Positions 5,053 to 44,830 of a stretch of DNA of 47,903 nucleotides are shown here, piece by piece. The notes beneath the pieces were generated by a model. That model was not told the origin of the DNA and made no database searches. It saw only the letters and a program-made list of their open reading frames with translations. The position numbers were made by a program, and so were the translations under genes. The stretch's first letter is position 1. Every line of letters starts with the position of its first letter. Location of the stretch: positions 62,001 to 109,903 of the forward strand of contig NGBS01000309.1 in assembly GCA_002245135.1 (NCBI GenBank), given 5' to 3'. The DNA comes from Proteromonas lacertae (Eukaryota).

Positions 5053-5253
5053 GGTGTTTGATTATTTAATTGTAGATAGTATCTTAATTTTATTCTTTAA
5101 TTGTTATAAAATGTTATATATAATATGGTAAGCATATTTTATAAACTTATTTAAAGAAAATAAGCGATATATTTTACAGAAACATAATTACTTTTCGATG
5201 CCCAATTTTAATAATTTTCATTAACCAAAATTTTAAAATAACACTTTCTTTTG

Positions 5254-12642: not shown

Positions 12643-12742
12643 TTCAAATTTGAAATAATAGAAACGGGTTAATTTTCGATTATTGTTCAATTTTTTCATT
12701 TCTTCATAAAAACAATAAATTAATAATCTAAACTCAAAGAAT

Positions 12743-14862: not shown

Positions 14863-16550
14863 TTATTCTGGGAATATTTGTTCACCAGTCTTTATATCGA
14901 TTAATTCAGAAGGAGATAATACAGGTTGTTCATATGTAAACTGTTTAGGAGGGAAATCTACTTCAAATTCCTCAGAAGTACCTTCATATACTTTATTATT
15001 ATCATTTGGATCATAAAATTCAGATTCACTATATACAACTTGAACATCATCATATCTCTTATAAGGTAGAATTAAATCAACAATTTCACTAATTCCTGGT
15101 ACAGATGGTGGTGTCTGTGGTTTTTCCACCTCTTGCTGTTTAACAACAATATCTTCTTCATTTCCTTCGCCATTTATCACAAATTCAGTTGAATCTTCCA
15201 ACATGTATAAATCATTTATATCTCTTTCATCATATCTATATTTAGGTAGTATTAAATCAATTTCTTCACTTATTCCTGGTATTTGTTTATTATGAATCTC
15301 TTCTTCATCTTCTACATACAATACTTCACCAGTTTTCATATCTATATATTCAGATGGAATTACACTCACTTCAATATTATCATATTTATTATGTGATGGC
15401 AATATATATTCTACTTCTTCACTTATTCCAGGGATTGGCTTTATATTATCAGCTGGTTCATGCAGTTCTGTAGCATGTAATACGATTGAATCTTCTAATG
15501 GATTAACTTCTTCAGCTACATTCAAATCATCAACTATTGCATCATCTATTGTAATTACTTCTGATTTTTTCTCACCAACTTTTCCTTCTTCTTCTTCTTT
15601 TTCTTCTTCTTCTTTGTTTTCTTCTTCTTCATTTTTATCCCATCCTTCATCTTCTAGTGGAATATCATCATTATTGTTTATCATATCTAAAGCATCTTTT
15701 TCTTCATTATTCTCTTCAAATTCTTCTTTTTCTTTTTCTTCTTCATTCTCCTGGTTATTATTATTGTTATTGTCTGTATCATTTAAGCTTTTCTCTATTT
15801 CTTCTTCATCTACTTGCACATCAACATCCACTCTTTCACTTTCATAATCTTCCAACATTAAATTCTCTTCTGCTTCATCTACTAATCTTTCTTGCTCTTC
15901 TTCACTGATAGTTTGTCGCTTGTTTTCTAAAGGTGGTAATCTACTAGGATGGTCTGTATAATAATTCCTTTCTTCATCAGCTGAGAAATTAACAGATCGA
16001 TCATAATTGTGTAAAATTTTGGTACTTTTTGATTTCATTGGTGATAGTTTTCTTCTATTCTGGATTGGTATATTTTGCTTGAAACGAGACATTAAACTTA
16101 ATACTTTTTTATGATGTTCGTGATCTTTCTTCATTTTCTTCACATCGATGGTTGGTCTTGCTGTATCAATACGTCTTTGTAAAGCATAGTTTTGTTCTGT
16201 GATTTCTTTCAATACCTTCTTTCTTTTTATCCTATGTTGAGTTTTGATAGGCATTAACCTTCTCATTGTGTCATTATGTGAATCAAGAACATCGTGTGTT
16301 TTTATATAAGTAACTCTATCTAATAATACTCTATTTTCATATTCGATTCTGGAATAAAATGCTATAACACGATAAATAAATTGTATAAATTAAATATAAT
16401 CATACTGTCAAGATCTTGCTTCTTCTTTCGAAGTCTAACAGATTCATCCATAGTTCTTGGAGGTTTATTATCTATGAAAGCTTTCACATGTCTTAAACGA
16501 ATTTTATCCCTCTGATCTATTCTTCTTTGCATATACTCTTTAGTTAACAT
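14863..16550 (-). CDS. CFAP97/Hemingway (KIAA1430)-domain protein with long acidic, repeat-containing C-terminus
   Basis: Two exons (intron ~16361-16405). 'RLRHVKAFIDNKPP...KKKQ...RIEYENRVLLDRV...EITEQNYALQRRIDTARPTIDVKKMKKDHEHHKK' matches the CFAP97D-type domain pattern. Confidence 0.7.
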
Positions 16551-18153: not shown

Positions 18154-19757
18154 ATGTTTAGAGTTGCTGATTATTTTATTGTGGTTGGTGTGGATAGAAA
18201 TGGTATGAAATAATATAAAATATATTACAATATATAGACAGTGAAATAAATGCCAGTTCAGCCACTGCTACTATTGTTGATCGATATCCAAAAGTAGATT
18301 GGGAAGATAGTGAATTTCCTAGTGAAGTTTCTATGTTCTGTATGCCTCTAGGTGTTGATGTTGGGAAATATACACTAGAAGAAAGAAAACCTCGAATCTT
18401 TTTGTTCTCTCTGTGTTCATCGTATTATTGTGTATTTATAAAGTTTTTATTAGTCGTGGATCAAGGCGTTATGGAACTGCTTTGATGTTTTATGAAGAAT
18501 TCAACGGAAAGTACGGAGATGAGGATTATGAACAGTTATACAGTCCAATTACTCTATGTATTATTAGTCAACATCCATTTTACACATTCTTCAGCCAATA
18601 TCTTAGAGAACTATACCGTCTAACAATAGAAGGCAACGCAATTGATTTGTCAGAAAGTAATCAACAATTTTTATTCAACTTGAGGAGGGTAAGTGCAAAA
18701 CCAATATCCTTACTATACAGAAAAGATGGTACTGCTGACGAAGATGATGAAAAAGATAAAGATATTTTATCATCACCAAGAGATGAAAATAACAACATTC
18801 AAATTCCAGTGGAATGTTATATTTCCAACTTAATCAATGGGTATAGCAACAATGAAAATATTGAAGATGGTATATTAATCAAATATCATATTGGAAAGAG
18901 AGTAATGGAATGTATAAAACCACCTGTAGATACATCATTATCCTCAATCTTAGATGATGAATGTTATAGATCATTATTTCATATTTTATCAATAGAAAAT
19001 ATAATTACAATCTATGAGCATTTATTATTACAACATAAAATCATATTTCATAGTAAACAAATGGAGAATTTGACTTTAATAAGTGAATGTCTATTGAACT
19101 TATTATATCCACTTAATTGGACAATGTGCTATGTATCTTTATTGCCTTTACAGTTAATTCAATGTTTAGAAAGTCCATTTCCTTATTGTATAGGTGTTCA
19201 TAGTTGTTTTTTAGATACAGATATAGCTACAGAATGTGTTGAAAATTGTGTTATTGTTTATTTGGACAGTAATATGGTTACTATTCCTAGTTCAATGAAG
19301 AAAGAGAATATAACTCATTTACCTAATGAATTGATTAATATTTTAATATCTAATCTTAAAGAAAGTACTCCCAAACCAATGATAACAGTGTTAGAAGAGA
19401 ATATTGATAATAATTATGTAATTTTTGATGTGATTTTTGGACCAGGGAAAATTGGTATAAAATTCTCCACTACTTCCTGTATTCTACATGAAGAAGACAC
19501 TAAAAAGGTAAAATGTATTCAAGTAGTGGGATTTGAAAAATATGGTGATGATGAAAAATCATTAAGTCCAGCTGAGAAATGTGGTAGTATAACCACAGAT
19601 TCAATATTAATAGCAATTAATGGGAAAAGTGTAATAAATGTACCAATCGACAAGATAATTGAAATGTTGAAGACATTACCAAGACCTGTAGTGTTGAGAT
19701 TTCAAATTGGAATAAGACCAAAATCAATGATTTCATCTACAACAAATACAGAAGAAG

Positions 19758-19802
<45 letters not shown>

Positions 19803-21784
19803 TACAACAACAACAAATGATACTTCACCAAATTCTTCTACTATAACACCAACTACTCCAATGACAATACACTCATCTGGTTCATCATCATCATTATTAC
19901 CATCTCCACCTGCTATAAGTGTAACAAGTAATACTAACTCACCACTACCTCCACTAGTACCATCATCTAATCGAAATCTTCATAATAATAATCATCCGCC
20001 ATTTTCATCACATTCTTCTTCAAATATTAATTCATTATCATCACCTTCTACTAATACATCTACATCTTCTATAACATCTACAACTCCTAAAGATGGAAAT
20101 GATGATGATGAAGATCCACATCATCATCATCATCATCACAAACATGGTGGTGCTGGACATCATAGACAAAGATCATCAGTAGTAGGAAATAGTTATTTAT
20201 TCTCAGAAAATTTTCAAAGAGAATCTTTGGGTTGATAAAGTGAGAAGTGTGTTTTTGTATATAATGATACAATTATTAGGTGATTATGAGCAATTTATTA
20301 TTAGAGACAAAGATGATCCTAAATATCCATTTGATAGTGATAAATATTTATCTAGTATTAGTAATAATAAATCTAAATTCTTATTTATGCAACAATTGAA
20401 AGATACTCAATCATTTACTTCATTTATTGAAGATCATTTGAATGAAGTGATTGATCCAGATTTAAAGTCTTTTATTACATTTTCTAGAGAAGTTTTAAAT
20501 AATAATAATAATAATAATAATACATCAAATACAACACCAACTCCAACTACTCCATCACCAAGAGAACCAACAGAAAATGACTTAGAGAATAATAATAATT
20601 CAACAACAAAGACTCACAGAAGAAGGAATTCGTTATTAGCTGCTTTTCAAGATTCTGATTCTAATTCTTCTTTTTCTTCTACAACTAATGGTAATGGTGA
20701 AAGAAGAGGTAGAAAGTCATCTATTGCCAATCTTTTTGGCTTAGGATCTAATAGCAGTAGTAATAACAATCTTGCAATGGAACAACATAAACAATCCATT
20801 GATACAATATATGAGAAGATTAATAGACTGAATTGGAAAATTAAACTATATGAAGTGGCAAGATATAAAGTTTGAACAATTACAATCGTTTATTTCAAAT
20901 AAGAATGTAAAAATTGAGATTCCAATAGTTGGAGTATTTCCACGATTCAATTACCAATTATTTGATAGTATTAAAAGGAAAGATGTAGAATTTAAACCAT
21001 TCACAAGCAATATTAAAGATATAGAAATAAAACGTAATAAATCTCAAACTATTGAAATGTTATTGAGTAGTGATAAATCTAGTTCAATAAGTGGTTCTGA
21101 TACTGTTATGAATGACAAAGGTGATAGAAATAGTAGTGGAAGCAGTAGTATTGTTGATGGAAAGAGTGTAGCTGTAGTTAAGTCAAGATATTCATTGAAT
21201 TTTAACTTTCAATTTCAAAAAGAGTTATGTATATAATTTTTTATATTTATTTTTTTATGTTATAGACTGTATTACAAAAGAATATAGATGAGAAAAAGGA
21301 AAAAGAAGATAAAGAAAAAATAGAAGAAGAGGATGAAAATATGATGTATTTAGGAGGAAATAACAATATGAATGTGAAGGATAAATCTAAAGTAAATAAC
21401 AGTAATAATAATAATGATATATTCAGTAAAGGAACTAAGTTTTTCAAATCAATGAATATATTCAAACAAAAACCCAATGATAGTTCGCCCAATGATATTG
21501 CTGTAATTAATGAGAAGAAAGATGATAACGTTAATAATGGAAATGAGAAAGAAGATATTGAAGAAGAAGAAGAAAAACATGATAAAGTGGTAGTGAAAGA
21601 AGAATTGACAAGAGATGATAAACCAAAGGAAGAACTACAGGAAGAGGAAAAACCAAAGAGTAGCAGTAAATCTAAGGATAAACATAGACATAAACTTAGA
21701 TCAGAAGAAGTTGAAAAAGAATTAGAAAAATCATCTGAAAAGAAGAAGTCTAAATTCTTATTTAACATGTTTAAAAAGAAGTAA
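18154..21784 (+). CDS. DENN-domain Rab GEF (uDENN-DENN-PDZ-dDENN), carrying three apparent 1-nt frameshifts in this assembly
   Basis: MFRVADYFIVVG, 'DRYPKVDWED..FP..VSMFCMPLG', 'RRYGTALMFYE', 'LCIISQHPF', 'LLYPLNW..CYVSLLP..L...LESPFPYCIGVHS'; PDZ 'GKIGIKF...SPAEKCG..TDSILIAING'; dDENN 'LLGDY...F....Y......FM..L..TQSF..FI'. Frame breaks at ~19801, ~20230 and ~20831. Confidence 0.88.
19760..19801 (+). repeat. (ACT)14 coding microsatellite (poly-Thr)
   Basis: Read directly from the sequence; coincides with a frame break in the DENN gene. Confidence 0.9.
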
Positions 21785-23297: not shown

Positions 23298-25206
23298 ATG
23301 AATATGAATCTAGCTAATGACAATAATAAGAAATACAAATTAACAAAAAGAGGGAAAGTAACAAACTCGTTAGTCACAAGATGGTTTGAATTGCCAACAA
23401 ATCGTATTGTTTGTTATATAATATGCTTTAGAATATTTAAAATATTACAAATTTGAAACAGATATTGATCCTAAAGGAGTGATTGACTTGAAAGATGTTC
23501 GAGTGGAACAACCAAATTATTGTTCATCTTGTTTAGTTATTACAGTTCCAAATCATAAGAGTAAAATTGTTCTACATCTTCATGGATGCTCTAAAGAAGA
23601 AATCCTTTCCTTAAAGCTTATGATTGATTTAGCTGGTAGTAGGTCAAACCATTATTCACCCTTACAAGCATACGGTACTTTTCAAACAGAAATACCAGAT
23701 ATGAACATTCAATCTAATCGTTCTTTGCTTGTTCGTGGTGATAGTCCAATAGGTAATAAATACTTACTAACCAAATCAGGTTTAACAAAAGTAACCAAAC
23801 AATATGTCAGATTCGATGAAAATTACAATATGATCGTATATAAAAACTCAATAGATGATGATTCAATCAATCCACCAATCAAAACAGTTACGTTAAATGA
23901 TATAATATATTACGAATATGACAGAAATGCCTGTAGATGTCACAAATTCAATGAAATGAGCTATGATGATATAAACGACTCATATTATAGTAACAAATAT
24001 CGTAATTGTATAACAGTAGAATCTAAAACAAAAGGATATAAGAAATTCGTACTACATAGTCATGATTTTAATAAAGAGACTGTCGATTTAAATAGGAAAG
24101 AAATTGAAGAAGTATTAGGAAATATAATAAAGCAACAACACAAACATGTAATGTCAATTGCAGGTGGTGAATTTATAAGTTTATCAGATTTTAAGATAAT
24201 GAATGAAATAGGAAGAGGAGCCTTTGGTCGTGTGTATTTGTGCCAGAACATTAACACTAATTATTATTATGCTATGAAAGTAATTGAAAAAACTATAACT
24301 ACTGAAAAGATGAAGAGAAATACAGTTGATAATTTCAATAGATTAAGAAATATCAATAATCCATTTATTATCAATATACATTACTGTTTTAACAGTGAAA
24401 ATAATGGGAAAATATATACAATTATGGATTATTGTAATAATTATAGTTTATACTACTTCTTACAGTGTTGTAAACATTTTACAGAAGCTCAAAGTGTGTT
24501 TTATTTGAGTGAGATCTTATTAGGATTAGAAGCACTTCATAACAATCATATAATCTATTCAGATTTGAAATTAGAAAATATTCTAATCGATGATTTTGGA
24601 CATATTAAAATAATAGATTTTGGATTATCAAAGTTTCTTCCAAACAATGAAAATAGAGTGAGAAGTAATAGTATATGTGGTAGTAAAGAATATCTAAGTC
24701 CTGAAGTAATTAATCGTGAAGAATATGGTATAGAACGTGATTATTGGAGTTTAGGATGTTTATATTATGAATTATTAGTAGGACAAACTCCATTTCATAA
24801 CAAAATGAATAGTGAATGTGATTTATATGATAGAATCAAAAGTGGAAATGTAATATATCCTAATACTATGTCTGGTGAATCAATTGGTTTAATTAGAGAG
24901 TTATTGAATGTAAATGTGGAAGAAAGATTGAATTTTGTAAAGAATAATATGAAAGATCATATGTTGTTTAGAAAACATAATGTGATATGGGATAATGTAT
25001 ATAATAAAGAGATTATTCCACCAATAATACCCAAATTGAATGAGAATAATTGTGATAATGATTATATGATTCAATATTTAATAAAGACACATAAAAGTAG
25101 TAATAATAACACAGCCAATAGTATAAAGAAGAATTCAATAGATAATGATATGATTGAAGATGTAAATACAAACGAAACAAAAAATAAATGTGTTATAATT
25201 GCATAA
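23298..25206 (+). CDS. PH-PH-AGC family Ser/Thr kinase (Akt/PKB/RSK-like)
   Basis: Exon 1 'LTKRGKVTNSLVTRWFEL' plus exon 2 'YLKYYK....PKGVIDL' form a PH domain, followed by a second PH-like segment. Kinase motifs GRGAFG, YAMK, YSDLKLEN, DFG, ICGSKEYLSPE, DYWSLG; AGC tail 'W..V..K.I.PP..P'. Confidence 0.9.
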
Positions 25207-26699: not shown

Positions 26700-27650
26700 A
26701 TGTTTCGCATTTTCTCTCAAACAAGAAAATATTTTAGGTTTATTAAATATTCAAAGAATACATCGTTGAAGGCATTTTCTACTATTATCGAAGATACTCC
26801 ATTTTCTTTTTCTGTTAATTATCAACCAAGTATATAATCATTTTTTTATCAACAATGGTGTTATAAAATGAAATAGAAGATAAAATATTGGTAAATGCTC
26901 CAACCAAAACATCCACTCCATCATCAGTGTATGAATTATTGGGTATAGATGTAACTCCACTTGATGATTTAATTCAAGGATATATATCTGTTCGTATATT
27001 GATTAATTATGTTATTTGTGTTGAAATAGGTTCTTCAATTCCAAAGAATGTAACTCCCAATGAAAGACTAGTTCTATGCAATCTGCCTGGTAATATAAGT
27101 GCTGTAGAAATAACCAATGCATTTAGAATTCTATCACCAATAAGAATACTCTACATAACAAATCCAAATTGGCAAATATCTTCTTGTTCATTCGCTCTTC
27201 AAGATTCAAGCCTAACTCCTACAGTTATTGGTGCTTATGTAACAATAAGAAATCAAAGATGTAGAGTATTATCAGTAGAAATGGCTAAGGAAGAAGGGAT
27301 TTGTTTATTGTGTGGAAAAAAAGGCCATACACAACACAATTGTCCAAAGTATATTTATATTTCATTTAAACATACTGTAGAGGAGCTTTACAATGCTTCA
27401 ATTGTGGTAGATATGGACATACTGCAAAAAACTGTCCATTTGAGTATATTGTTCTTCTAAGTAATTATATTTAGGCATGGAAAGATTATTTGCTTCAGAT
27501 GCCATCGGTACGGTCATTTAGCTAAAGATTGTCCCAATATGTATTTCATTTTGTGTTATTTATAGAGATAATTCCATACCATTTTGTCATTACTGCTATG
27601 AAGAAGGACATTTTCCTAATGATTGTCCTAAGAGAAAACATTCTTCATAA
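26700..27650 (+). CDS. RRM-like plus four CCHC zinc-knuckle RNA-binding protein with predicted mitochondrial-type presequence
   Basis: ATG at 26700 (MFRIFSQTRKYFRFIKYSKNTSLKAFST); RNP2-like 'LVLCNLP'; knuckles CLLCGKKGHTQHNC, CFNCGRYGHTAKNC, CFRCHRYGHLAKDC and CHYCYEEGHFPNDC on separate small exons; stop at 27648-27650. Confidence 0.8.
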
Positions 27651-27795: not shown

Positions 27796-30700
27796 ATGTT
27801 TTCTATCTATAACCAGTTTGCTTTTTTAACTTTAATAATTATTTCTACATACTGTTTTGATCTAGGTTACCTATACAAAGATGGATCAGTTTCTGAAAAG
27901 GAACAATGTGATTTATTTACTAAATATCTGAATGATAAAGATAGTACTATAAATATACATAGTGAAAAGTATGATGGAACGCTTGGTGGATTTATTGGAG
28001 CTTTAACTCAAATGATTATGTCAAATCCTTTTGACATAGTATTTGTGCAATGTACTGATGATATTATGAAGATGGAAAAGACCTTTATAGAAAAACAAAA
28101 TAAAATTATATGGTGTGTAAACACATACAATTATGGGGATTGTCATCACAACTTTGTAACAGGAAATTCTATTGTAGCTCCTCTAAAAGATAGTATTTAT
28201 TATTTTTGTTAATATTTCATTAGTTGATTTCATCACATCTTTGTCATCTTCCTATCTAGGTGTATTATCCGGTGTTCAAGATGAATTCGATGCATTCTGG
28301 CCACAGAGAATAAAGAACTTAGGTGTAATATTTGGTCAAGAAAACATATACAACGAAACTCCAGGTGAATTACAAGATGCAAATATAACATATTACAAAA
28401 CCCACTTAGAGGATGATGAATTCAAAGATCAAAATGTACAAACGTATGCTGTAATCAGAAAACAAGCACAAGTAAAATTATTACTAGATAGTATTGGAAA
28501 TGGTGAAAAGAGAAGAGTGTTATTTATGATGAATGGTTTAAGTGAAAAAGAAATAATTTTAGGAAGTGGAGCTAGTTCAGATAAGTTAGAAGGTAATTCA
28601 TTTTTGCATTTGTATAGTAATTATTCAGATTATGAGGAATTTTTAAAACAATATTCATTGACAGCAGCAAATCGAGCTAATCCAGATGGAGATGTTTTTG
28701 TGTATTTATATTTAATTATATATATTTGTATTTTTAAATAGAATTGGAATTGCCAATATGTTGATAGATGTTCTTCAAAAGGTTAGAACAGATCGTGTCT
28801 TGGATTTATTACCGTTTTTATACTACAAAGAGTATGAATATCCTGGAGGAGGTAAAATTGTTTTGTTACCAAATAATAACATAGCTAGTACTTGGTTTAT
28901 TTACGAATTCAAAAAAGATAGTGCAGGTAGTGGTATTACATCTTATATGAGATATCCAATAAAATTAAATAAAGATTTTGAACCAGATGAATATTTTGAT
29001 AGATATTACGATGAAAAGTGTTATTTGATACATCCTGATCAAGCTAAAATTAAAGTAGATGTGTTGAAGATATTAATAGTCACAGAATACAGTTTACAAT
29101 TGAATGATAAGCTATTGAGAGAGATGTTACACTCTTTAGTTGCCTATTTTAATGCAAATGTATATATATATATATATATATTATATATAATATAGAAACC
29201 TATAAGAGGTAAATATATTGAAGCAATATCATTACCTATTGATCCTGATAAAGAAATATCACTTTCTACTACAATAGAGCAAATTAATGATTTAGCAGAG
29301 AATCATACAATATCTGCAGTGTTTTTGTACACTTCTGTTGAAAGAAGAATAAAAATTGTGAATGGACTTGAATCTAATTTGATGGTTTTTTACCTTGGTC
29401 ATGTTGAAGGTGATCATTGTGACCCTAATGTTATTTATGTATTAATATATATTATATATATATAGTGTGATATGATTAATATGAACTATATCAAGCTAGT
29501 GTCATTGTATTTAAGAGAAAGCACAGAAAATGAAAAATTATATGTTATAGGAAGTAATGAAGTGTATAATATATACTTATTTTTATATATAAATCAATAG
29601 ATATGGAGAATCAACCAGTAGATTATTAAGGAAGTATTTGTCTGAGAATGATGGTTATGGTAATAGTGATATATTGTATTATGATCTTAAAGACGATTCA
29701 TTTGCTGAATGTAATGCTTCAATTGCTAAAGCCATAAAGGATTGTGCCAATGGATGTGTTGTATTAATAACAGCTGAGGATAAATACAGTAAACCATTGA
29801 TTTTAGCAATTCAAGATAATAGTTTATCTGAGAATGAGAATTTTACAATAATATTCTTTAATATGAATGAATTAACAGCATATTCATTCAATGTATATAT
29901 ATATATAATTATCTTATTATTTTATAGGCTACTAATATCTACTTTATAACTCATTATTATGATGGTTATATTTACAGTAATCATATAAGTCAGTATTTGA
30001 CTAAATTTAGAAAAGATCTTCAAGATGTGTTTAATATTACAATGCCTTTAACAAATATAATGGCTTTGGTATATAATGCATTTCAACAATGGACAGATTC
30101 TGTAATTCTTTCATCAGATGATCCTTCAATATACAGATCCTATTTCTATCATCAAATTACTGAAGATCCTGCAGCTGGACCATATGAAATATATTATAAC
30201 GGATATGCTCAAGGATTGTTGCAAATTGTGAAGATTATAGATCCATATAAGTGTGAATATGAACAAGTGATTCAAGATTACTTTGCAAGACAAGCAAAAG
30301 TATTTCATAATAACACATTAGATTGCTCATTTGAAGATTTGACAGCTAAACCAGTTCAACCAATATCTCAATACAAAATTGGATTAATTTGGAATATTAA
30401 TACAAAAACTGGATCTAAAAGATATGAAGAAATTCAAATGTTTGTTGAATTACTGAATCAAGATGGTGGAATAAATGGAAGAAAATTACAAACAGTAACA
30501 ACTAAGTATAATGATGATCCGACAAAGTTGAATGATATAGTAAAAACACTCTGTAATGATACTGATTTATTATTCTTTATTGGAACAACTACAACTGCAG
30601 AAAGAAATGCTATTAATAAGACATTAATTGATTATGATAAATTATGTTTTTCTTATGCTCCAAGTCCTGGTAATGTTGTTTATAAGAATATAATCTTTGT

Positions 30701-33700
30701 ATTTATATAATAATAATTATTATTATTTAATAGATGAATCGTTTACCTCATCAACATTTGTCTTATCATTTCTATACTGGAGCAGAGTTATTTGATGCAA
30801 TTGCAATTGCATATGATAATAGTGTAGAGTATATATTGATATAGTTTAATTTCATTTATAGGGAAAGTAAATCTGAAGCTCTATTTTTGAAAAAATTTGC
30901 TAATAGTCAACAAGTTGAACCTATTAAAGTTTATGCATATGATTCATCAAAACTGTCAGCCAAACAATTAGCTGATAAAGTAAGTATTGATTTAAATATA
31001 CCTTCTAAAACTACTTTATTATATTCATTCCTGGGTGATTATATTGATGAGTTTATGCAGAATTACACTCTATCATCTGCAACTCATCCAATTATTATTG
31101 AAGATTATGAAAGTGCAAGAGTATCAAACTTTTCATTGTATGATGGTCATTTCTGTGAATCATTCTACTTCAGATTATTTACTACTCCAGTGAATGTCGC
31201 ATTAAAGAAACAGATAGAAACGTATAAAGGTTTACCTGATGAATTAATGAATAAACATGGTTTTATGTTTTATACAGCATTACAGATGATGAAATCAGCT
31301 ATTGAAGCTACTGCTACTCTTAATTCAACTAGTTTGAGATTGAATATGTATGAAACTGAATATGATACTCCAATTGGTAAAATGAAACTTATACCAAATA
31401 ATTATCTTACTCATTACAATAGAATAAGGAGGATATTAGGTACAGGTAAGACAATTGATGAGTTTTACTTCCCTTCTCCCATTTATCCAATGCCTTATCA
31501 TCCAGTAGATAATAATGATCAATATTATGATGTATCTTTCGGTTATGGTGAAAATGGAGCTTTAAAAGAAAAGAATGTAATAATTATTGCCTATTTTGAG
31601 AATATTGAATCTAGAACTAATGCTTACATGAATTATGATATTGTTAGAATAGCTATTGAAAATGCTAACTATAATGGAGGAATAAAAGGAGCTGAAATAG
31701 CAACAGAAGTGTATCAATGTCCTGCCAGTAAAATGGAGGCTTCTGGTACAATATTAGATTTATATAACAGAGGAGTTAAAGTAATAATTGGAGGATGTGA
31801 TGAAAAACATAGAGACTATTTAAGAAGTATTGTTGAGTCATTAAAGATGGTGTTTATTTATACTGGATTTAACGCAGGTGGTGATTGTTCAAAATATATT
31901 AGATATGTTTATAATTCACCAGCACAAGCTCTTATTCCAGTTGGATTACATATGCTATATAATGAACCAGATCGTCCATTCTTTATTTATTCATTAGCTG
32001 ATGATATTTCATCTAGAATTAAGTTAGTAAAAAGTATTTTTAATGCATTTCCTGCTAGATTTGTTGGCGATATAGGCATTCCTGAAGTACAAGATGAAAA
32101 TGAGATTGAAATTAGTATAAGAGAAAGTTTAATAGCTATGAAAAAAGCATTACCAGATGGTGGACCTATACTTGTATTACTTCGTAGTTTATATATGGAA
32201 AAATTCTTAGAGGTTATATTAAACTTGTTATATGATCCAACAAAATTTAGTAGTCATGAAGAAATGTTTGAATATTATCGATTATATTTAATTGATTCTT
32301 CTCATACTCATTATTCTAATGGTGATAAGTTAAAAGGAATAAAAGTATATGCTTCATTCTTACAAACAGAATCAAGAATGAGTCAAACCTTTTTTTCAAA
32401 CTTTAGATCCTTAACAACTATGAGTTATTCCAGTTATGTTAATGCAGTAGATAGTGTAGCAACGACATTCATACTACAAGTATTAAGAGATGTAGCATCA
32501 TTAGATACTGAAGAAATATTGAAGCAAACTTATCTTACTTCTGTTGAAACAGCTATTGGAGCAATTGTTGCTGATTCATCCAATCACTTTAGTCAATATA
32601 TTTATTATGGTCATGTGAATAAAGATGGTGATATTGTAGCTGATTCAACAGTGACTAGCTCATGGAGTGGTGATCCTTGGAGAGAAACATTTGATCAAAT
32701 GGATTATTATAGATGTGATTGGAGAGAATTGGAAAGTGAAAAAGCTTCAGTTTCTTTGTATAGAATGTTAATTATTCTTTCAGAAGATCCTATGTTTAGA
32801 GTTAAATCATTGGTTTATTATTATTCATTGTATGCAGCAGTAAATATGGTAAATGATGATGAAAATGGAATAAATGGTTATTACATTTGGCCAACAGTTG
32901 TAACTGATGGAAATAATGCAACTTACGTTGCACAACTTGTGCGATATTACAATAATGAATATGATATAAAATTATTTTGTGGTGGTGCTACAGCTGCAAT
33001 TAGAAAAGGAATGCAAGAAGGAGCTGAAGATATAGATGTGGTATTGTTCTTCCCATTTGATTATGAAGGTAGAGAATGTTTATCAAAAGGATTGTATTTT
33101 GGTTTACCTTATCAATCATATCTTGTTTTATTCCCTTGGATAGTAAAAATGTCAAAAGGTACAATTATAGTATTATATTCTAATACTGTATATTCGACTA
33201 TATTTTATGAATTTTTGAAAAAGGATTTTGATGCTTATGAACATTATATTGAATTTAACTTAGATATATTAACTTCACAAGATAATATCACTGCTGTTCT
33301 TACTATTATAAAGAACTTGAATTTAGGAGGAGGTTTAATTGTTTCTCTATTAGAAGGTGAGACTGCTCTTTCATTATTTTCTGCCATGAGAGCAAATGGA
33401 TTAACACCTCCTAATTTCATTAGTGTTTCATTAGATATTGATGATTTATCTCTTTATACAGTAGGTGAAGATGCTATTGGACATTATTATTGGGATACAT
33501 TTATAAGAAATACTTCAAATCAGTTTTATTCTACAATTGAAGGTAGAATTCTTAAGATATTTACTTTTTTACCACAAATTAATTCATTAGCTATTACTGC
33601 TGTTGATCAAATTATAGTATTCAGAGATACAATGAAGAAAATGAATGATCTTGCTGGTGTTACAGAACCAACAGCTGCTGATTTCCATGATTTAGTCATA

Positions 33701-36700
33701 AATAGTGAGTTTTCAGTTGCAAATGGTGATAATGTTAAATTTACTCCAGGAGGATCTTTATATACTAATAATTTTATTAAATATGTTCAAGGGTTTAAAG
33801 ATGGAAAGCCAATTATTTCAATAGAATATGGAACACAGAAATTAGTTCCATCTTATCCATTTGGTTGTTTATATCATGACACAGAAATCCAAAGATGTGA
33901 TTGGAGACAATCTGTTTCTAAAATTTTTACTTATTCTACTGTTAAACTTGGATTGATATTCTCTACAACTGGTGAAAATACTGAAATAGATGTAAGATCA
34001 ATAAATGGAGTATTTGCAGCTGTTAAAGAGATATATTTTGATAATGATCCAATTAATAACACTTATTTAACAATAAAGATGTTTAATTATCAATCTAATT
34101 TAGACTATCTTAAGCAACATCTTGAAGAGTTTTTGTCAGATAAAGATATTAAAGTCTTAGTCGGTTGTTCATCAAATGATTGTAAATTATATGTTAAAAG
34201 TGTATTAGAGAAAATGGAAAATCCTCCTCCTTATTTCTATGGAAGAATATCATTAGGTCAAGAATGCAGTCCATTGCTATATCATACAAATTTAGTACCA
34301 GATCAGTTTGTGAATAGATTGTTTGAATATTTTATATCTACCAGTTACAATACAAATTTGTACTTACTTACTGAATTGGCTTATGATGATTATCACTTTG
34401 ATGAATTAATAGAAGATGCTTCAAGTGGTTTATACACATTTATAGGTAATTTCAAAGTATCATCTGAACAAACATTTACTCTAAATATTGTGAAAGAAAT
34501 AACAGCAAACATGTCAGGCGGTGGAGTGATAATTACAGCATTAACAAGTAGTGATTTATCAAGATTTTTACAACTTATTACAAAGATAAGAGCTGATGCT
34601 AATAAATTCGCAATTGTTGATATTTTACTAGAAGAAGAACATCTAGATACTATTCTACCAAGTTATAGAAAGAATCTCTATAAACTGTCAAGATATTATA
34701 AAGATATTCCAACTGAAGCAAATGAAGCATTTAAAAAGAAGATATTACATTATACTAGTGAATCAGATCCAACAGCAATGCTAGAAAGTGTTTATGGTGG
34801 AACAATGTTATGGTATTATGCTGCAAAGAAATGTGGATGTTTTGATCCTGATGAAATAAGAAAAACAATTCATGGATTAAGTGTGGATGTAGGAAGTGGT
34901 GTAATGACCATGACTGAGAATAATTATGCAACTACTCCATTCTTTGTAGCAAGATATTCAGCAGATGGTAGTAAACTAGAAACTAAATACTTTAAATATG
35001 AAACTGAAAATCCATCACCTTGGAGTTGGAATATTAAACTAAGTTATGGTTTGAAATGTAGTTTCAAGAATAATGAAATCAAAACACAATATGTTGTGCC
35101 TGTTAAGAGAGTATTGTTTGCATCAGCTTTAACAGGAAGTTTATCTGATAAATCTGATGGATTAGTTGATGCTTTTCAACTTGCTATAAATGAGATTAAT
35201 GTTAATGGTGGAGTTGGTGGATATACAATAAAAGCTGATATAATGGATATGCAATCTGATACTGAATATTGTAAAAGGGCAATTTCTAATTATATATCAA
35301 GTGAAGTAGCAACAATATTTACATTTGTTCATCCTGTATGTACAAATTATCTAATAGAGAGTGATGTATTGACTAACAATAGATTATTAATGTTTGTAAC
35401 AAAAGAGAGAAAATTAGGTTTTTGTGATCAAAATGTTGCTATAGCTACAGAACATTTATCACTATATGAACCAGTTGCAGCTGTGATTCATACAAGATTC
35501 TATCTGAGACTATTTGTATTTTATAATGAAGAAGATGATGAAATTGCTAATTTTGTATTATCTGAATCAGCGAAACTATCTGTTGATGTAATTACTTATA
35601 TTGCATATCCATTTACAACTTCTGGTATTAGAAGACTGATTAGAGCATATAGTGAAGATGAAGAAAATACAAATTGCATCTTATTCTTTGGTGAAAAAAA
35701 TGACTTTGTCACATTAATGACTGTATTATCAACACAGAATAGAAATAATCAATTTCATGTAATAGTTATGAGAAATGCTGAAAAGATAAGAACATTGAAA
35801 GAATATTACAATACTGGATATGAAATGTTTGGATTTTATGAACAAGATTATGAGAGTGAAGAGAATGAAAAATTTAAAACTAATATTTATCAAAGAATCA
35901 ATAAAGAGAAGTATATATCAGATGGAATGGTGAGATTATATTCATCTGTTAAGTTATGGGCAATGGCTGCAAATAAATTACCGTTAGATCTAACAGATGA
36001 TGAAGGTAATAAAATATCCAGTTTAGATTTCAATGAGTTAAGAAATCATTTACGTTCTTTAGAAGTTGAAAGTCCAAGTGGATTAACACATTTTGGATCA
36101 AACCAGTACTTGGCAAGAATTGGATATTTATCTCAAATACAACCAGATGGAACTGCAAAAATAGTATATACAACTATAACTCCACATTTACCAGAAGCAT
36201 GGCCATTTAAAGATGGAAAATATGTAAAATGTGATTTTGATGATGCAAATGTTGATTCACAAAAAGAGGTTAATACTTATACAGTTGCTGTTGTTGTTTC
36301 TCTTAAAGGAAGCGATGCTACAACTGGATCAAGATTATTCCATTCATTTGCTGCTGCATTAGATCAAATAAATGAAGATGGAGGAGTGTTGAATTATTAT
36401 ATTACTTATCAATTATATGATGCAAATTCAAGTGATGAAAGATATGTTGAAATAATAAATGATATTGTAACTCATACAACATACAGTTATATATTTGGTG
36501 CTAATCTACCTGATACTTTAGAGAAAATAGCTCCAATATTAGAAAAAACTGATAGAGGTTTATTCTTTTTAGGAAGAGCTTATGGAGAAAAATGTTATGA
36601 AAATACAATAATTGCTGGAGTTCCACCCTATGAATTAGTAAGACTTACATTGAGAAGATTATTAGAAATGTCATCAGCGACTTATATAGTTTATAACTCT

Positions 36701-39700
36701 GATCCTTATGTGAAGAAAATATTGGAAAATATGAATGATATGATGGAAAACCTGCAAATTACAACAAATGGTATTAGTAATATCGATGAAGGTAAAAGAG
36801 CTGTTACAAATATAAAGTTAGCTTTGCCAAATGGAGGTTATATAGTTAATATGATCATGGGACCAAGTTATATAGCTGAATTTTACAAATATGTTTTAGA
36901 AGAATCATTATATTACCCAGCTTACACATTTATTGATGTTTTTATTGATGTAAATCTGTTAAGAACATTGGATAAGAAGTTAATGACAGGACATATTTTC
37001 TTAGGAACATTCTTTGAAGAATTAATTGATCCAAATCTTAATAAAGTTGGTGATATTCCATATATTGGTAAACAATTTGTTCAGAATGTGCATATTAGAA
37101 CTGCTGATTATTATTTAAGTGGTGGAATGGAAATACCATACATTCAAGTGTTAGTGTGGAAATCAATAATCACTAAATCCAATAGTTTTGATATTAGTTC
37201 ATTAAGTACAATGTATAATTATCAAATAGATGTACCAAGTTATGAAGTAAGAGTATTAGAAAATAATTATGTTGCAAGAATGGAATTTGCTGGTACAGTT
37301 CAAGAAGATGGTAGTGTATTAATAGATTGGCATCCAACATCAATGTTTGAAGCAAATCCTTATCATGGAACTAATTCTACATCAGTTGGTTATATTTGTG
37401 ATTGGGCTGTTGAAAAGAAAGAAAAAGTATATACTGATCCAATAATAATAGCATTTTTACATGAAAGAGATATTGGTGGTAAAACTGAAATATATAATTC
37501 ATTATTACAAGATATGACAGTTGATGAGATAAATGATTCTGGAGGAGTTTTAGGTAGAAAAATAGCTGCTGTTCATTATTGGGTAGTTATAAATGATGCT
37601 TATAAAACAACAAGAGAAATATTAGAAGAAGGAAAATGTAATATTATTGTAGGATGTTTAACTTCAGAATGTAGAAATGAAGTAAGTAGATATCTTGAAC
37701 TACATGATTTTGTATTTTTATTTACAGGCAGAGATGATGGATATACTTGTAATGAAAATACTGTTAATACTGGTTTAACTATCAATCAAAAACTAGATCC
37801 TGTTTTTGATTACTTTAGTAATATAGGAATTGAATCAATATATGTTGTCGGATCATTTAGAAATAGTTCTCAGACAGAATTATATCTAATTCAAAAATAT
37901 GCTGAAGAGATAAATTGTCCATTGATTGGTTCATATTTCTTCACTCCATTTAGCAATGATTTGTTAGAAAATTGTGTTGAAGATATGGTGAAATTATTAG
38001 ATACAGCTACAAGAGTTGCAGTTATTAATCTATTTGTTGCAAGAGAGAATGAATTGTTTTTGTCAAAGTTCTTATCTAATAGTATCATTAGAGCAAGCGT
38101 TACAATGATAATTATGAATTATGATCCATTAGATTTATCACCTTCTACGAAGTCTTTATTATCTGGTTCATATGTTGTATCATCCTACGATGAATCAGTA
38201 AAGAATACAATATCTGGTGCTTTGAAATATACAGCAACTGCTACTTATCAAAATGCATTAGAGTTAGCTGAAATATCTGAAAATAGTTATAGTGCGTTGT
38301 ATGTTTGGAAAGCATCAGTAGAATATGCAAAATTACAAACAAGTGATGAATGGCCAACTGCAGGTTATGTGAAATTGAGTTTTAAGTATACAACAACAGA
38401 TGGTCCATCTGGTACTGTTAGTGTAAAGAATACAAATCAAATATTAAAGTCTGTTTATATATTCAGAATAACTGATTCAAGTTTATCTCAAGTTTATCCA
38501 AAACAAGGATTACAGTATCAAGTAGATCCAAAAATGACTTACAAATCAGAAAGTGAATGTACATTTGCTAAAGAGAAGGAATTATATGAATATGACTCAG
38601 CTATTCAAACAGTATCAATTGTCCTAGCAGTATTGACTGTAGCTTGTGCTGCTTCTACATTAGGATTTGTGTTCTTCTTTAGGCATTCAAGGATTATTAA
38701 AAGTGCAAGTCCTTTGTTTTTATATTATACATGTGGTGGTATAATGTTATTAGCGTTATGTAGTTTGGTGTTTATATATGAACCAACCAATGATGCAATC
38801 TGTGCATTTAGAATTTGGTTCTTAGCAATAGCACTAGATTTGGTATTTAGTATTTTATTCTGTAAAGCTTGGAGAATTCATAAATTGTTTAACAATAAAG
38901 AATTACAGAGAGTTAAAGTATCAAATGGTCAATTAATGAAGATGATTGGTATTATTTTAGGTGCTCAAGCTGTATATTTGTTAATCTGGCAATTAGTAAA
39001 ACCATCAGAAGCTGTTGAAGTGTTTAGTAGTGGTTATAGTACTTTCCTGAAAGATATTTATATTCGAGAATGTACTTCAACTACTTATTTTGTGTATATA
39101 TTTATTATTTTAGTTTATTATTAAAATAGAGTGATTGAATTAGTAGCAGTAATATTGTTATTCATTTGGGGAGCTAAATTAGCTTGGGGTGTGAGAAATG
39201 CTTCTGCAGAATTCAATGAATCAATGTCTTTAATGTCAACTATTGGTTTTATAAGTATTGTTTATTATATATTTATATAATTTCATAGTGATTCTTGGTA
39301 TATTAGAAATACCATTGAATTATTTATTAGAGTCTGAACCAGGAACATTGGTTATAATTAGATCATTTGGTATTTCATTAGGTTCATTTGCTGTATTGCT
39401 GTTACAGTTTTCATCTAAGTTTTTGTATGTCTATGCAGTGGAGAGATCTACAACTTATGGTTCATCTTCTTTGACAGGAAGTAAATCAAACAAAGAAAGA
39501 AGTAAGATGTTAAGAAAAGCTGCTTCAAGAGGTGCATTTACTGTTTCTCCTGATATGTTGAAATATGGAGGAATTGCTTTATGTACTATATCATTCCCTG
39601 ACAAATTTTATGATGAAGTGACTATGATATCATCCTGTAGTACAGCCAGAAGAAAAATGACCACAAACAATATGAATAGTGCCAGAAGTAGTGCTAAAGG

Positions 39701-39704
39701 TTAA
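27796..39704 (+). CDS. Giant class C (GABA-B/metabotropic-like, 7tm_3) GPCR with ~9 tandem AmiC/UrtA-like periplasmic-binding domains, ~3,850 aa
   Basis: Signal peptide at 27796; nine GT-AG introns join all ORFs in frame. Repeated ~390-aa units with 'A..EIN..GG..G..I', '(Y)EG.EC' and 'P.G...h...N..' motifs. The 7TM carries class C signatures 'R...IKSASP.FL', 'C..R.WF......LVF..LF.K.WRI.K.F', 'FNES' and TM7 'F.SKF'. Confidence 0.9.
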
Positions 39705-39874: not shown

Positions 39875-42355
39875 ATGGATCTTCCAATAATATTAACAAC
39901 ACAAGCTTTGCCTTCATCAGGTATATTTTGCACTGATGCATAATTAGAATCTATTAGAGCTGATTGTGCTGTTCCATTAGGTGGAGTTATACAACCATTT
40001 GTAGGACCTACTCCAAAAAGAGTATATAAAATAATATTAATTATTAGATATACAATTATTCCCAATTTGATGATATTTTTAGATGTCCAAACTGTTTTGG
40101 ATATTATAACCCATATATTAACGAATCATTTAATACGTATATTTAGTTTTTATTCTATAAATAGTTGGAGATGTCCATTATGTAGTGAATATGCTTCTTT
40201 TCCGTCAGATCCAAGGTTTCGCGATCAATTAGAAAGAAAAAAGACATACGAATGTACCGAGCAATACGTTGAATACATATTACAAGACAAAACACACGAT
40301 GATAATGATCCACCAAAGGTACTATACACATTTGTTATTGATTTAAGTGGAACAGATGAGTATTTCTCAAACCTTCAATCAAATATCATTGAATCATTAT
40401 CCCATTTACCTGATTATGGATCATTTTGTTTAATTACAATTGGAGTAAGAATTGGATTGTATGATTTATCTCAGAAAATACCACGAGTTGTTGTATATCT
40501 TTATTTACTTATATCATTATTTCTATATAGTATTTGAATGGAAATAGTAATTATAAACCATGGAAATTGTATATGTTATCTAAAAACAATATAATTAATT
40601 GGAATGATGTGATAAAATTAAACCGATTTGCATTACCAATAAAAGATAATAAAGAAAAGATAAAATCAATAATTCAATCACTTTGTCCAATCAAAGGAGA
40701 TAAGTATCTATTATTATTATTATTATTATTATTAAATAGATCTTTGCTTGGAGAATGTGTATATTCACTTGTTAACTTTATTAAATCCAATAATAAAGAC
40801 ATATATGGTGCAAATATATTTATATTTTTAAATCAAATGGAATCTAATGCAATATTACCAAGTGAAAGTATACATTTTATTAAATGAATATATTTATATA
40901 ATAGATGCTCCAACTCAAGAATATGATCATGAAACAGAATATACAATCAAAGATGATTTAGTATAACAATATATAATATATAATAACAATTATTAAATAG
41001 ATTGATTCATCTGTTTCCAATGGAATTACATTCAATATGTTTTACTCTATTGAAGATCTTCATATACTTAGTAATTGGGTAACTTTAATCTCTTCAACTA
41101 ATGGTAATATCTATCATATTGAAAAAGAGAATCTTAATAGAATAACCAACATTCTAAGTCATTTGTTTTGTAGTTATAATGGCTATAAAACTTCCTTAAG
41201 AATAAGATCTAGTCCTTCCATAGTGACTTCATTTCCAGAATGTTCTTCATTGAAAAGTGATAAATTATATGATAATTTATACCATATGTCTGTAGTAAAT
41301 AATGGAATTAGTTATAATTTAGAAGTAAATTATGGTAGTTCTGATTATTTCTATTATGATACAAATAATTCATTTGTTATTCAAATGGTATTGTCATATT
41401 ATGGTTATGTTAAGAGTAATGATAATATTGAATATATACCAGCAAATGTAATTAGAGTTTATACAAAAAGAGGAGATATCACTAATGATAAAATGACATT
41501 GTATAAGAAATGTAATCCCAAAGTTATATCTTATTATATCATTCATTCTGTATATAATATAATATATATTTATTTATTTATTTTTCTTATCTCTTTATTT
41601 TATAGATATTAAAATCATATCAAATCAAAGATGTTGATTCTGTCAGAGTGTTATTCTTAAATTGGATTATACAGTTTTACACTCATTACAATTACGAAAC
41701 TAAACCATTAAGAAATGTAAATGATATAAATATGATTGATATGAAATTTCAATTCCATCCTCATTTACTATTAATTACTCATATTGTATAGAATATATAT
41801 ATATATATTATTATTTATTACTATAGATATATTCATTATTAAAGAATGATTTATTATCAAATTATTGTCCAGCTGATAAAAGACAATATTTGTTATATTT
41901 TATTCAACATTTAAGTTGTAATGAATTAACGAGATATTTCTACCCTCAACTGTATAGTTATCAAGCTATGGATGATCAATCTGCTGAAATAATACCATTA
42001 AGTAGATTAGCTATGACTTCATCGTATTTATTGTAATAATTATATTTGTAATAGAAAAGGCCATTTCTTTGTATTAGATGGTTATGAAGATGTAATGGTA
42101 TATAGTGATGCAAGTGTAGAAGATGCTGAAATTCCACCTCCAGAGAATAGTAGGTTATATAAAGATATAGAATTTATGATTAATAACAATTGTCATTGTA
42201 TTCCAAATGTGTATTATATTGAAAGTGGTAAAGATGAGTGTTTACTTGAGAAAGAGTTAATTGAAGATAATACAATGTATGGAAATGGTTATTATGAATT
42301 TGAGATGATTTTACAGAAAGAAATTGAAAGTGATTTAAGTAATAACAAACATTAA
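39875..42355 (+). CDS. Divergent Sec23/Sec24-family COPII coat protein
   Basis: Many short exons. 'VPLGGVIQPF', zinc finger 'RCPNCFGYYNPY...WRCPLC', trunk/vWA 'YTFVIDLSG', beta-sandwich 'LRIRSSP..' and 'QMVLSY...IRVYT', helical 'YPQLYSY', gelsolin-like C-terminus 'LDG...LIED'. Confidence 0.8.
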
Positions 42356-42439: not shown

Positions 42440-44830
42440 TTACAAACTCAAAACATCAGCTTTAAACAAAACATTCTTCTCTATTAAATCAATAATTTCT
42501 ATAAGAAACATTGAATCACCATTATCCAATTCTTCAAATACATAATGAGAAGGTTTACAATTATATTTATCACTATACAACACAATACTATCTTTCAAAA
42601 TCATCATTATCTCCTCAAAACTCTTCTCTCTTTCTTTATTCTCATCTTTCTCACTTAATACTAATGAAAAATGAGTTAAAATCTTAATAATAATCTCTAA
42701 AATATCTTTAAACTCTACTAAATCCTTTCTTATTACAAAATTATCTTTATCTCTTAACAATAAATACAATAAATTAATATTATTACTAAGATGAGGTTGT
42801 TGAAGTGCAAAACATATAATATGAAGAAAACTTTCCAATATAATATGATATATTGTCAATATATTCGTTTCTTTTTTTATAACGGAACTATCATTATCAA
42901 TAATATATCCGTTATATTTTGAATTCTTTAAAGGATAACCTAATTCATACAATATAGCATCAATTCTCATATCATTTTCTTTACTCATTTCATTATTACT
43001 ATCATCTTCATTCTCATCTTCAACTGGACCTAATTTCTTCTTTGAAAACGATTTCTTTTCATTCTCTAATCTTACTTGAATTGGTTGAAATAGATCCTCT
43101 AAATTTGTATCACTTGAACATGGTGAAATTTCAAATTTTAGTTTTGGTGGAGTTATTGGAGTAGGTGATGGCTGTGGAGGTATTGGAATGTTTAAAGGAA
43201 TATTTGAAATACTTATTACTGATCTCCATGTTGGATTTTTATGAATTGAATTGTTAGTATTATCATTATTTGATGGAGAATTAATAGCTTCTATCTTTTC
43301 AGGGTTATTTTTACTACTGCTATTACTGTATTGATGTTTCATAGATGATAATAAATGATTTTGAGGTGGTTGAGGAGAAGATTGAATAGGAAATGTTAAT
43401 GAAGAAATATTATTATTATTATTATGACTATTAACCATTTTATTTACAGAAGTATTATTATAATTTATTTTTGAAGATTTTACAATATAATGTTTCTGAT
43501 GAATCTTACTAAGTGATTTGAATAAATCTAATAACCTTAAACTAGTAATATAATGAATATTATCAACATAAGAAGCAGTGTTGAATATAATAGCATAACA
43601 AATTTGAAATATGTATTGATCTTTCTGATGCTTTGAATTCTGTGAAATTACTTTTAATATTATGATCAAAAGTAATGAACCAAGGTAAATATCTTTCAGA
43701 TTCTCTTCATGATACCAATCAACGAATGTAATACAGATTCTACTATGTATTGTCTTATTGAAACTTGGATCTTGCGAAAGTAATAGGAGTACTAACAATA
43801 GTGGATATAATTGGATGGAGTTTAGAAATGATGTTTGATAGAGTGATTCTATTTTGTTTTTAATGTATAATAATAATTATAAAATATACTTAATAATGGA
43901 AGACACATTATTTCAATATCTGCTTGAGAAACGATATAATTATAGAAATATTTATTATCTTTTAAGAGTTTGTATAATAAGAAAGAACTAATATGATATA
44001 TTAGATAGTTATAGATACGAATAAAATATATTGACATTATTCGGTATATTCAATAGATTTTGGAATGGATATTGCAATGAATTATGAATTGTATAATGTG
44101 ATTTATTGTCTCTATAATATAATAAAATATAATGATTATACTGTAAATGAAGAAAAGCTTGTCTAAAAATATTGTTTCTATCAATTAAAAGACATAATAA
44201 TGAAACACTATTTGTTATTAATAATCTAATAATATAAATCATAATTATATATATATATATATACTCTGTATTCTTATTGGATGGTAAATTATAATATGTT
44301 AATAATATCGTTATTAATTGTTGCATTCTATACAAATATTAATGAATATATCAATATCATATAATACTTTTCAGCATCTAATATTGATGATAAATATTCC
44401 ACAAAATGAAATGGTTGTGGACTATTTTCATGTTGTTTTTCTATCAATATCAATAGTATTAGACATTCAATTATATAATTGTATATTTGAAATAAATCTG
44501 AGATTATTACGTTCTTCAAAAGCAAAAGCAAAAATGATCTGATGACTTTGTATATTGATGATTCTATATAAATAATATATATCACATTTATTACCTTCTC
44601 TAATTGTACTATTGAATGAAGTTATTTCTTTAAATGTTTCAAGATTAATCGTAGATTCTTCAAATAATTCATTCAATATAATCTTTAGCAGTTTTATTGA
44701 CGTTGTTACTCTAACTATTTGAGGATGGAAGATTGTATGCAGATCAAGCTATAACAGTAAATCATTTATTATCACAATTATATGTACATGATTATGTGGT
44801 ATTCTGACAGGACATTCATATATGTATAAC
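42440..44830 (-). CDS. DYM: Dymeclin; 5' end apparently missing
   Basis: 'LLVLLLLSQDPSFNKTIH...WY.E..LKDI.LGSLLLIII.K.I..N.....DQY....C.A...N', 'N.NLLYLLL' and C-terminal 'YVFEE' match dymeclin. Upstream exons trace to ~44830 with no start codon or Met-Gly N-terminus. Confidence 0.8.

Follow-up and report, generated by a model that had tools for sequence, protein, structure and literature searches.

Gene structure and locus

The stretch of DNA analysed here (the window; 47,903 nt of Proteromonas lacertae contig NGBS01000309.1, assembly GCA_002245135.1, positions 62,001–109,903 of the forward strand) is of eukaryotic type, with 27.5% G+C and many short AT-rich introns (median intron-like length 35 nt). 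It carries a gene predicted to encode a giant G-protein-coupled receptor (GPCR) of class C, in which nine flytrap units with the fold of the urea-binding protein UrtA stand in front of a seven-transmembrane domain (7TM). Removal of ten predicted GT-AG introns (27–40 nt) yields a stop-free protein of 3,854 amino acids from the ATG at 27796 to the TAA at 39704, and retention of an intron gives a frameshift or an in-frame stop in 10/10 cases. An earlier note on this DNA had described a single spliced open reading frame (ORF) of ~3,850 amino acids with a signal peptide, nine units and a 7TM. This description is borne out, and the unit starts in Table 1 are all within ~10 nt of those given in that note.

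The splice model is a prediction from the sequence, and units 1–3 rest on eight predicted introns. The end of unit 3, units 4–9 and transmembrane helices (TM) 1–5 lie within a single open exon (30862–39093, ~2,744 codons), as compared with 143 amino acids for the longest open frame among 200 shuffles. The orthologue P0027 (32.7% identity to the window protein over 3,294 columns) has the signal peptide and units 1–9 within a single ORF and is in register with the window gene at all eight upstream splice junctions, and the orthologue P0003 covers unit 4 to the tail, across the last two junctions, likewise as a single ORF. One gene therefore holds both the units and the 7TM, as had been claimed.

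Table 1. Predicted features of the receptor gene, in positions of the window
Feature	Positions	Strand	Evidence
Whole gene, predicted class C GPCR, 11 exons, 3,854 aa	27796..39704	+	Splice model; P0027 and P0003 single ORFs across introns
Predicted signal peptide, aa 1–20	27796..27855	+	Hydrophobic segment aa 8–26; similar start in P0027
Unit 1, introns 1–2, UrtA-fold domain of greatest divergence	27856..29051	+	11.3 bits; orthology to P0027 unit 1
Unit 2, introns 3–6	29058..30350	+	91 bits across full unit; 116 bits in another search
Unit 3, introns 7–8, both Cys of pair replaced	30366..31564	+	Peripla_BP_5 27.8 + 44 bits, two main exon pieces
Unit 4, pocket unconserved	31568..32749	+	Peripla_BP_5 51.8 bits; pocket P = 0.46
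Unit 5, re-tuned pocket W-x-Y/F-D-E in orthologues, Trp lost here	32753..33922	+	Peripla_BP_5 62 bits; pocket P = 0.027 uncorrected
Unit 6, pocket unconserved	33935..35092	+	Peripla_BP_5 108 bits; best PDB match UrtA 7S6E, E 2e-16; pocket P = 0.82
Unit 7, pocket conservation below background	35099..36265	+	Peripla_BP_5 71.8 bits; pocket P = 0.99
Unit 8, pocket conservation not above background	36272..37432	+	Peripla_BP_5 85 bits; AlphaFold model; pocket P = 0.70
Unit 9, membrane-proximal, conserved F-R-D / R-S replacing urea residues	37436..38590	+	Peripla_BP_5 97 bits; UrtA 8HIC structural match; pocket P = 0.053
Class C 7TM, GABA-B2-like, introns 9–10	38594..39434	+	7tm_3 114 bits; GABA-B2 E 3e-14; seven hydrophobic segments
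Ser-rich cytoplasmic tail and stop codon	39435..39704	+	First part kept in P0003

The upstream neighbour (26867–27650, +), with several CCHC zinc-knuckle-like motifs, ends ~150 nt 5′ of the receptor ATG. Farther upstream are a Ser/Thr kinase gene (23422–25206, +), a gene with DENN and PDZ domains (18359–20875, +), a gene with a weak match to Hemingway/CFAP97, under the cut-off (14863–16389, −), an ankyrin-repeat gene (7505–12762, −) and three similar tandem genes with basic Ser/Thr-rich N-termini (2980–5838, +), the first with a weak SPRY match. Downstream lie a Sec23/24-like gene (39944–41612, +) and a Dymeclin gene (42440–43876, −). The weak CFAP97 match hints at an organism with flagella; taken with the low G+C and the short introns it would fit a flagellated opalinatan stramenopile (G+C table in PMC10690189), at the level of a guess.

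The flytrap units

The nine tandem units are ~385 amino acids long. In the profile search proposed by the earlier note, units 3–9 pass the Pfam cut-off for Peripla_BP_5; unit 2 scores 91 bits against a profile built without unit 2, and unit 1 only 11.3 bits versus 5.1 for the best shuffle. The assignment of unit 1 rests mainly on its orthology to unit 1 of P0027 (23% over 362 amino acids, E 1e-23), which itself scores 50 bits. The top NCBIfam model for the units is UrtA (TIGR03407), with profile matches for units 2–9; the scores of the window units or unit pieces (23–93 bits) are below the UrtA family cut-off of 492.75 bits. AmiC is a weaker match than UrtA in every search. The units thus belong, as had been proposed, to the UrtA/AmiC branch of the type I periplasmic-binding proteins. 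The sequence motifs quoted in support of this proposal stand as a loose likeness only: 'YEG.EC' is found exactly solely in unit 5 and 'LLFYP..YEG' in no unit.

The units are only 9–18% identical to each other, so that the duplications must be old and collapsed repeats can be excluded. When the units of P0027 and of the window protein are compared in order, identities are 20–48% on the diagonal and 9–21% off it (position test, P = 2e-5).

Structural modelling covered units 8–9 together with TM1–5. The AlphaFold model, calculated from 58 sequences, has a predicted local distance difference test score (pLDDT) of 92.8 and a predicted template modelling score (pTM) of 0.87, and the high pTM suggests that units 8–9 and the membrane part are packed in a defined way; a single-sequence run (pLDDT 40) was discarded. 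The best structural match of the modelled unit 9 is urea-bound UrtA (8HIC, VIA; Z 45.8, root mean square deviation (rmsd) 2.2 Å, 371 residues), followed by AmiC (Z 43.4) and the mGlu receptors (Z ~34), in agreement with the predicted fold.

Of 146 scorable units, 142 have one cysteine after the fourth strand together with another in the C-terminal linker; unit 3 has neither in the window protein and in P0027. Because the pair is kept so generally and is lost together, it suggests one disulfide in each unit. There are 23 N-glycosylation sequons across the nine units.

The seven-helix domain

The complete class C 7TM reported for this gene is confirmed by a 7tm_3 score of 114 bits on TM1–5 (cut-off 33.5), by seven hydrophobic segments at amino acids 3509–3756 and by GABA-B2 as the nearest solved structure (E 3e-14). 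The window protein has no NCD3G match, the nine-cysteine domain of mGluR/CaSR/T1R being absent, and the stalk between unit 9 and TM1 is only ~15–20 amino acids long. Class C GPCRs are characterized by a Lys/Arg in TM3, an FNE-type third loop and cysteines linking TM3 and the second extracellular loop (ECL2), all of which are present in the window 7TM. Its motifs CKAWRIH, EFNES, ICAF and RECTS are kept in P0002 and P0003. In TM7, FxPK is the usual class C motif but is not family-defining: P0021, P0055 and P0191 have FVPK, the window protein has FSSK and P0003 has FASK. The 7TM is the best conserved portion of the protein (55% to P0003).

Relatives and distribution

A HMMER search with unit 9 and TM1–5 gave 33 matches at E ≤ 1e-30, and the best 150 matches were taken; nine more proteins came from a search in which three P0021 units were the query, which makes a set of 159. 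At least two units are present in 47 of these, and 31 of the 47 also have a 7TM (P0117, with two weak unit matches of 13–16 bits, was left out of the multi-unit count). The architecture is therefore not unique to the window gene but that of a family which is also represented in Capsaspora, in a chytrid and in other eukaryotes.

The AT-biased amino-acid make-up of the window protein is shared by 34 of the 47 multi-unit proteins, whose 7TMs fall together in a single clade (22 rows; support of 99 in the Shimodaira-Hasegawa-like approximate likelihood ratio test, SH-aLRT; all trees quoted are quick trees). P0028–P0069 and others amount to at least 34 divergent multi-unit relatives of AT-biased make-up that are less than 50% alike, which suggests a large receptor expansion within one protist group.

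Three distant proteins with unbiased make-up have nine units and a 7tm_3 domain: P0191 (4,080 amino acids), P0192 (3,909) and P0021 (3,745). P0191 and P0192 are complete and have N-terminal hydrophobic segments; in P0021 the first unit is truncated. Whichever two of them are compared, their unit positions match better than expected at random (P = 0.028, 0.0045 and 0.00012), and the nine-unit array therefore predates their split. In all, five proteins from distant sources have the same unit number, nine. Smaller members are Capsaspora CAOG_05347 with three units and Phlyctochytrium (chytrid) KAJ3101170 with two. The 7TMs of P0191 and of the Phlyctochytrium protein fall in another part of the 7TM tree; the array has therefore been joined to more than one 7TM.

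Pairs of one intact and one degenerate UrtA unit were found on two eukaryotic membrane proteins that are not GPCRs (P0193 and P0199), one with ephrin-receptor-like repeats and one with a weak TRP-like match. To judge from their predicted domains, the UrtA module is used beyond GPCRs in eukaryotes. Prokaryote-type proteins of ~1,500 amino acids with an intact UrtA unit at both ends were also seen (P0056, P0060, P0066, P0084), and in P0056 the two units are separated by HEAT repeats and an NB-ARC-like domain. Of 182 pattern matches in a metagenome scan with the unit 9–TM alignment none was confirmed, and none of 52 in a genome scan with P0041. A word-indexed search with the 2,745-amino-acid exon (0/4,273 candidates) has to be regarded as a false negative, P0002 and P0003 being in the same length range.

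Origin of the module

Eukaryotic units with an intact urea pocket form a single clade (SH-aLRT 100; 98 in a tree with added cyanobacterial loci). They typically have a P-x-G-G insert (GG in 17/24) and the Cys pair (20/24), which among 33 prokaryote-type units from the searches occur in 0 and 1, respectively. Both features are, however, carried by the UrtA of marine cyanobacteria. A scan of prokaryote genomes for the motif gave at least 120 matches; among the 80 listed, 74 are from named cyanobacteria, five from uncultured bacteria and one from a bin named Sphingobacterium. The last (L058:901–939) is a cyanobacterial-type urtA inside this bin and may reflect contamination or transfer. At the motif loci a multi-unit or 7TM ORF was found in 0/239 cases. 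With 15 scan loci added to the tree, the eukaryotic and cyanobacterial sequences fall in one clade (SH-aLRT 99).

The bacterial origin proposed earlier for the module is thus supported and can be narrowed to a cyanobacterial-type UrtA as the likely donor. The donor is considered likely rather than proven because the sequences from which the scan motif was derived were themselves eukaryotic and cyanobacterial, and because few other prokaryotes (24) were sampled.

Ligand pockets

Urea binding by UrtA requires Ser122, Gln144, Tyr190 and Asn246, and five more residues line the pocket (PMC10392092). The nine residues were mapped onto the units by profile alignment. The four essential ones are together in 0/9 units of the window protein, the best unit having 1/4, so that the earlier suggestion that this protein reads urea or amides is not supported. 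The distal units of the distant nine-unit proteins present the opposite picture: all nine pocket residues are found in 8/8 of P0191, 7/8 of P0192 and 5/8 of P0021, in total in 20/24, and a sixth distal unit of P0021, which is truncated, is intact over the part present. The middle unit of P0041 also has all nine. A urea/amide multi-sensor therefore fits the relatives better than the window gene. Among full membrane-proximal units the four essential residues occur in 0/32 family-wide, the window included.

Conservation of the pocket versus the rest of the unit was tested in up to eight (6–8) orthologues for the six testable units, 4–9. Only two units have pocket sites weakly above background, namely unit 5 with P = 0.027 and unit 9 with P = 0.053, both values uncorrected. 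In units 4, 6, 7 and 8 they are no more conserved than the rest of the unit (P = 0.46, 0.82, 0.99 and 0.70), which speaks against the view that every unit is a sensor; intact control units have a mean pocket identity of 0.96. In unit 9, Arg, Asp, Arg and Ser stand at the positions of Gln144, Glu146, Tyr190 and Phe192 in 6/8 orthologues. The P value for this unit was 0.026 with four sequences, 0.13 with three full sequences and 0.053 with eight orthologues. Among the 14 sequences of the P0002 cluster, no significant reduction of allele variation was seen for unit 9 plus TM (5/586 versus 23/1,417 sites, P = 0.21).

Functional interpretation

Based on what was observed, namely the open frames, the identity and order of the domains, the missing urea residues, the family and its unit tree, we favour the reading that the window protein is a class C GPCR with nine UrtA-fold flytraps devoid of urea pockets, in which a solute other than urea likely closes unit 9 to signal and most outer units likely form a rigid stalk. 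We give this reading an even chance. A little better than even is the chance of the wider view that there is an old eukaryotic family of nine-flytrap GPCRs derived from cyanobacterial UrtA, whose free-living members are multivalent urea receptors (up to eight urea sites acting on one 7TM via a pocket-less pedestal unit), and in which the window lineage erased the urea sites, kept the chain and expanded a re-tuned repertoire.

The history would be as follows. A cyanobacterial-type UrtA would have entered eukaryotes once, have been fused to class C 7TMs and have been amplified to the nine-unit array. In the ancestral type, as in the distant members, urea would be bound in several outer units and closure be relayed via the pocket-less proximal unit to the 7TM, a relay that may be likened to the strain passed by the closed proximal flytrap of BvgS (PMC4352136). 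With urea scarce, a large number of sites would improve its capture or the cooperativity of the response. P0191, P0192 and P0021 are accordingly predicted to be multivalent urea receptors and are the best candidates for a urea-sensing GPCR. In the window lineage the array would have been frozen into nine position-specific units, each likely disulfide-stapled, with the chain retained and the urea sites lost. Unit 9 would have gained a conserved cleft of Arg/Asp/Arg/Ser, into which a small molecule with a charge could fit, and the orthologues may have a second site in unit 5. Closure of unit 9 would shift the short stalk into TM1 and thereby switch a probably dimeric 7TM coupled to a G protein; dimerisation and coupling are assumed from class C biology.

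It should be noted that several points weigh against the favoured reading. The P values of 0.027 and 0.053 are lost after correction for six tests, and unit 9 was scored on seven sites only, the orthologues being mostly truncated. Its conserved residues could be structural, because the proximal units of distant relatives look like ligand-free pedestals, and the Trp that is part of the orthologue pocket of unit 5 is missing from the window copy. The structural model is confined to units 8–9 and TM1–5. In the TM7 motif the Pro that is usual in class C receptors is replaced by Ser. As to the common history, a positional link of the window lineage to the distant nine-unit arrays was not seen (P < 0.05 in 1/6 tests; 0/3 for the window gene, 1/3 for P0027), and in the free tree the window units branch close to the root and not within the eukaryotic clade. 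Several of these units, however, share the P-x-G-G insert and the Cys pair, and constraining them to the eukaryotic clade gave a log-likelihood higher by 44.9 (approximately unbiased test, p-AU 0.92). The window units are too diverged for placement in a free tree.

The protein could instead be an antenna or contact receptor, in which nine dead clefts form a glycosylated chain that binds large surfaces (mucus, bacteria or other cells) or that passes on force to the 7TM, with unit 9 as a pure pedestal. The lack of a urea pocket in all 32 proximal units and the 23 sequons are in line with this, the at least 34 divergent multi-unit relatives of like make-up suggest a surface repertoire, and force applied via the ectodomain can activate GABA-B (bioRxiv 10.1101/2025.06.09.658551). 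In unit 9, however, the very positions of the ligand contacts are occupied by charged residues in 6/8 orthologues, and a Pfam profile scan of the window protein revealed no autoproteolysis or adhesion domain. We consider this alternative doubtful.

Also unlikely is a true multi-sensor, with a different small solute bound by each of the majority of the nine units and the inputs summed onto one 7TM, in the manner proposed for BvgS. In its favour, the units have held position and fold across orthologues only 22–60% alike, many live pockets are retained in distant relatives, and BvgS homologues with one to five flytraps have been proposed to be signal integrators (PMC4352136). Against this stand the free variation of the pockets of units 4, 6, 7 and 8 in 6–8 orthologues (P 0.46–0.99), as compared with an identity of 0.96 in the intact controls, and the fact that not one urea pocket remains in the window protein.

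That the protein is a surface protein whose 7TM is no longer G-protein-coupled, or the silent partner of another subunit, could explain the Ser for Pro in TM7 of the window protein and P0003, but is very improbable considering that the 7TM is the best conserved part and has retained the TM3 Lys/Arg, the FNE loop and the TM3–ECL2 cysteines. An artefact, with the 5′ units and the 7TM belonging to separate genes or brought together by mis-assembly, could at most draw on the eight predicted introns of units 1–3 and can be practically dismissed, since one exon joins units 3–9 to TM5, P0027 has units 1–9 in a single ORF in register at 8/8 junctions and P0003 spans unit 4 to the tail.

Significance

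Class C receptors are understood as having one flytrap per subunit. A chain of nine raises the question of how closure far from the membrane reaches the 7TM, and receptors with all pockets intact and those with all pockets dead are natural pairs for testing this transmission. What is most striking is found in part beyond the window, in the relatives predicted to be multivalent urea receptors: they are directly testable candidates for a urea-sensing GPCR and, if the prediction is true, urea is a direct GPCR ligand. In this family one can also trace how a subunit of a bacterial transporter was turned into the ectodomain of eukaryotic receptors, separately from the ANF-type flytrap that animal receptors have.

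N-termini of class C receptors have been described to reach 1,667 residues (PMC3251606); that of the window receptor has ~3,500. CAOG_05347 is listed in Dataset S1 of the same paper, the accessible parts of which mention neither tandem units nor UrtA for this protein. The architecture '/Peripla_BP//7tm_3/' is listed in the supplement of PMC3971589, tandem units and UrtA again being unmentioned in the accessible parts, where neither CAOG_05347 nor KAJ3101170 is characterised, and in those of PMC12716839, PMC8687355 and PMC12842992 there is no mention of a tandem UrtA-type receptor. Neither a tandem UrtA-type GPCR nor a urea GPCR was found in the full-text literature, with subscription papers largely outside, and the earlier statement that no characterised receptor of this build is known agrees with this. 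The domain pair Peripla_BP plus 7tm_3 is thus already catalogued, whereas no description was found of the nine-unit array, of its identity as UrtA or of the intact urea pockets.

Comparison with known systems

The window receptor resembles the GABA-B receptor in that its 7TM is nearest to GABA-B2 and in that a type I flytrap is joined to TM1 by a short stalk, without a cysteine-rich domain. It differs in that its flytraps are nine in number and of the UrtA and not the ANF type, and in lacking the TM7 Pro, and flytrap and 7TM fail to superpose jointly on the GABA-B receptor (rmsd ~25 Å). With cyanobacterial UrtA (7S6E, 7S6F, 8HIC) and AmiC it shares the fold, and with cyanobacterial UrtA also the P-x-G-G insert and the Cys pair; UrtA and AmiC are, however, single soluble subunits of a transporter or regulator, and the window units are only ~16–22% identical to cyanobacterial UrtA and without the urea residues. 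The proteins from Capsaspora and Phlyctochytrium likewise have tandem UrtA-type units on a 7tm_3 domain but only three and two of them.

The flytraps of the BvgS/EvgS kinases are of a different binding-protein class from UrtA. In these kinases one to five flytraps are also arranged in tandem, and the one next to the membrane, which is closed even when no ligand is bound, passes strain on (PMC4352136); the output is, however, that of a bacterial histidine kinase and the likeness an analogy only. On protist surfaces, the trypanosome receptor adenylate cyclases have two flytraps but are single-pass cyclases without a 7TM (PMC6027212), and Entamoeba EhVFT has one bacterial-like flytrap, which is held by a glycosylphosphatidylinositol anchor rather than by a 7TM (PMC12965686).

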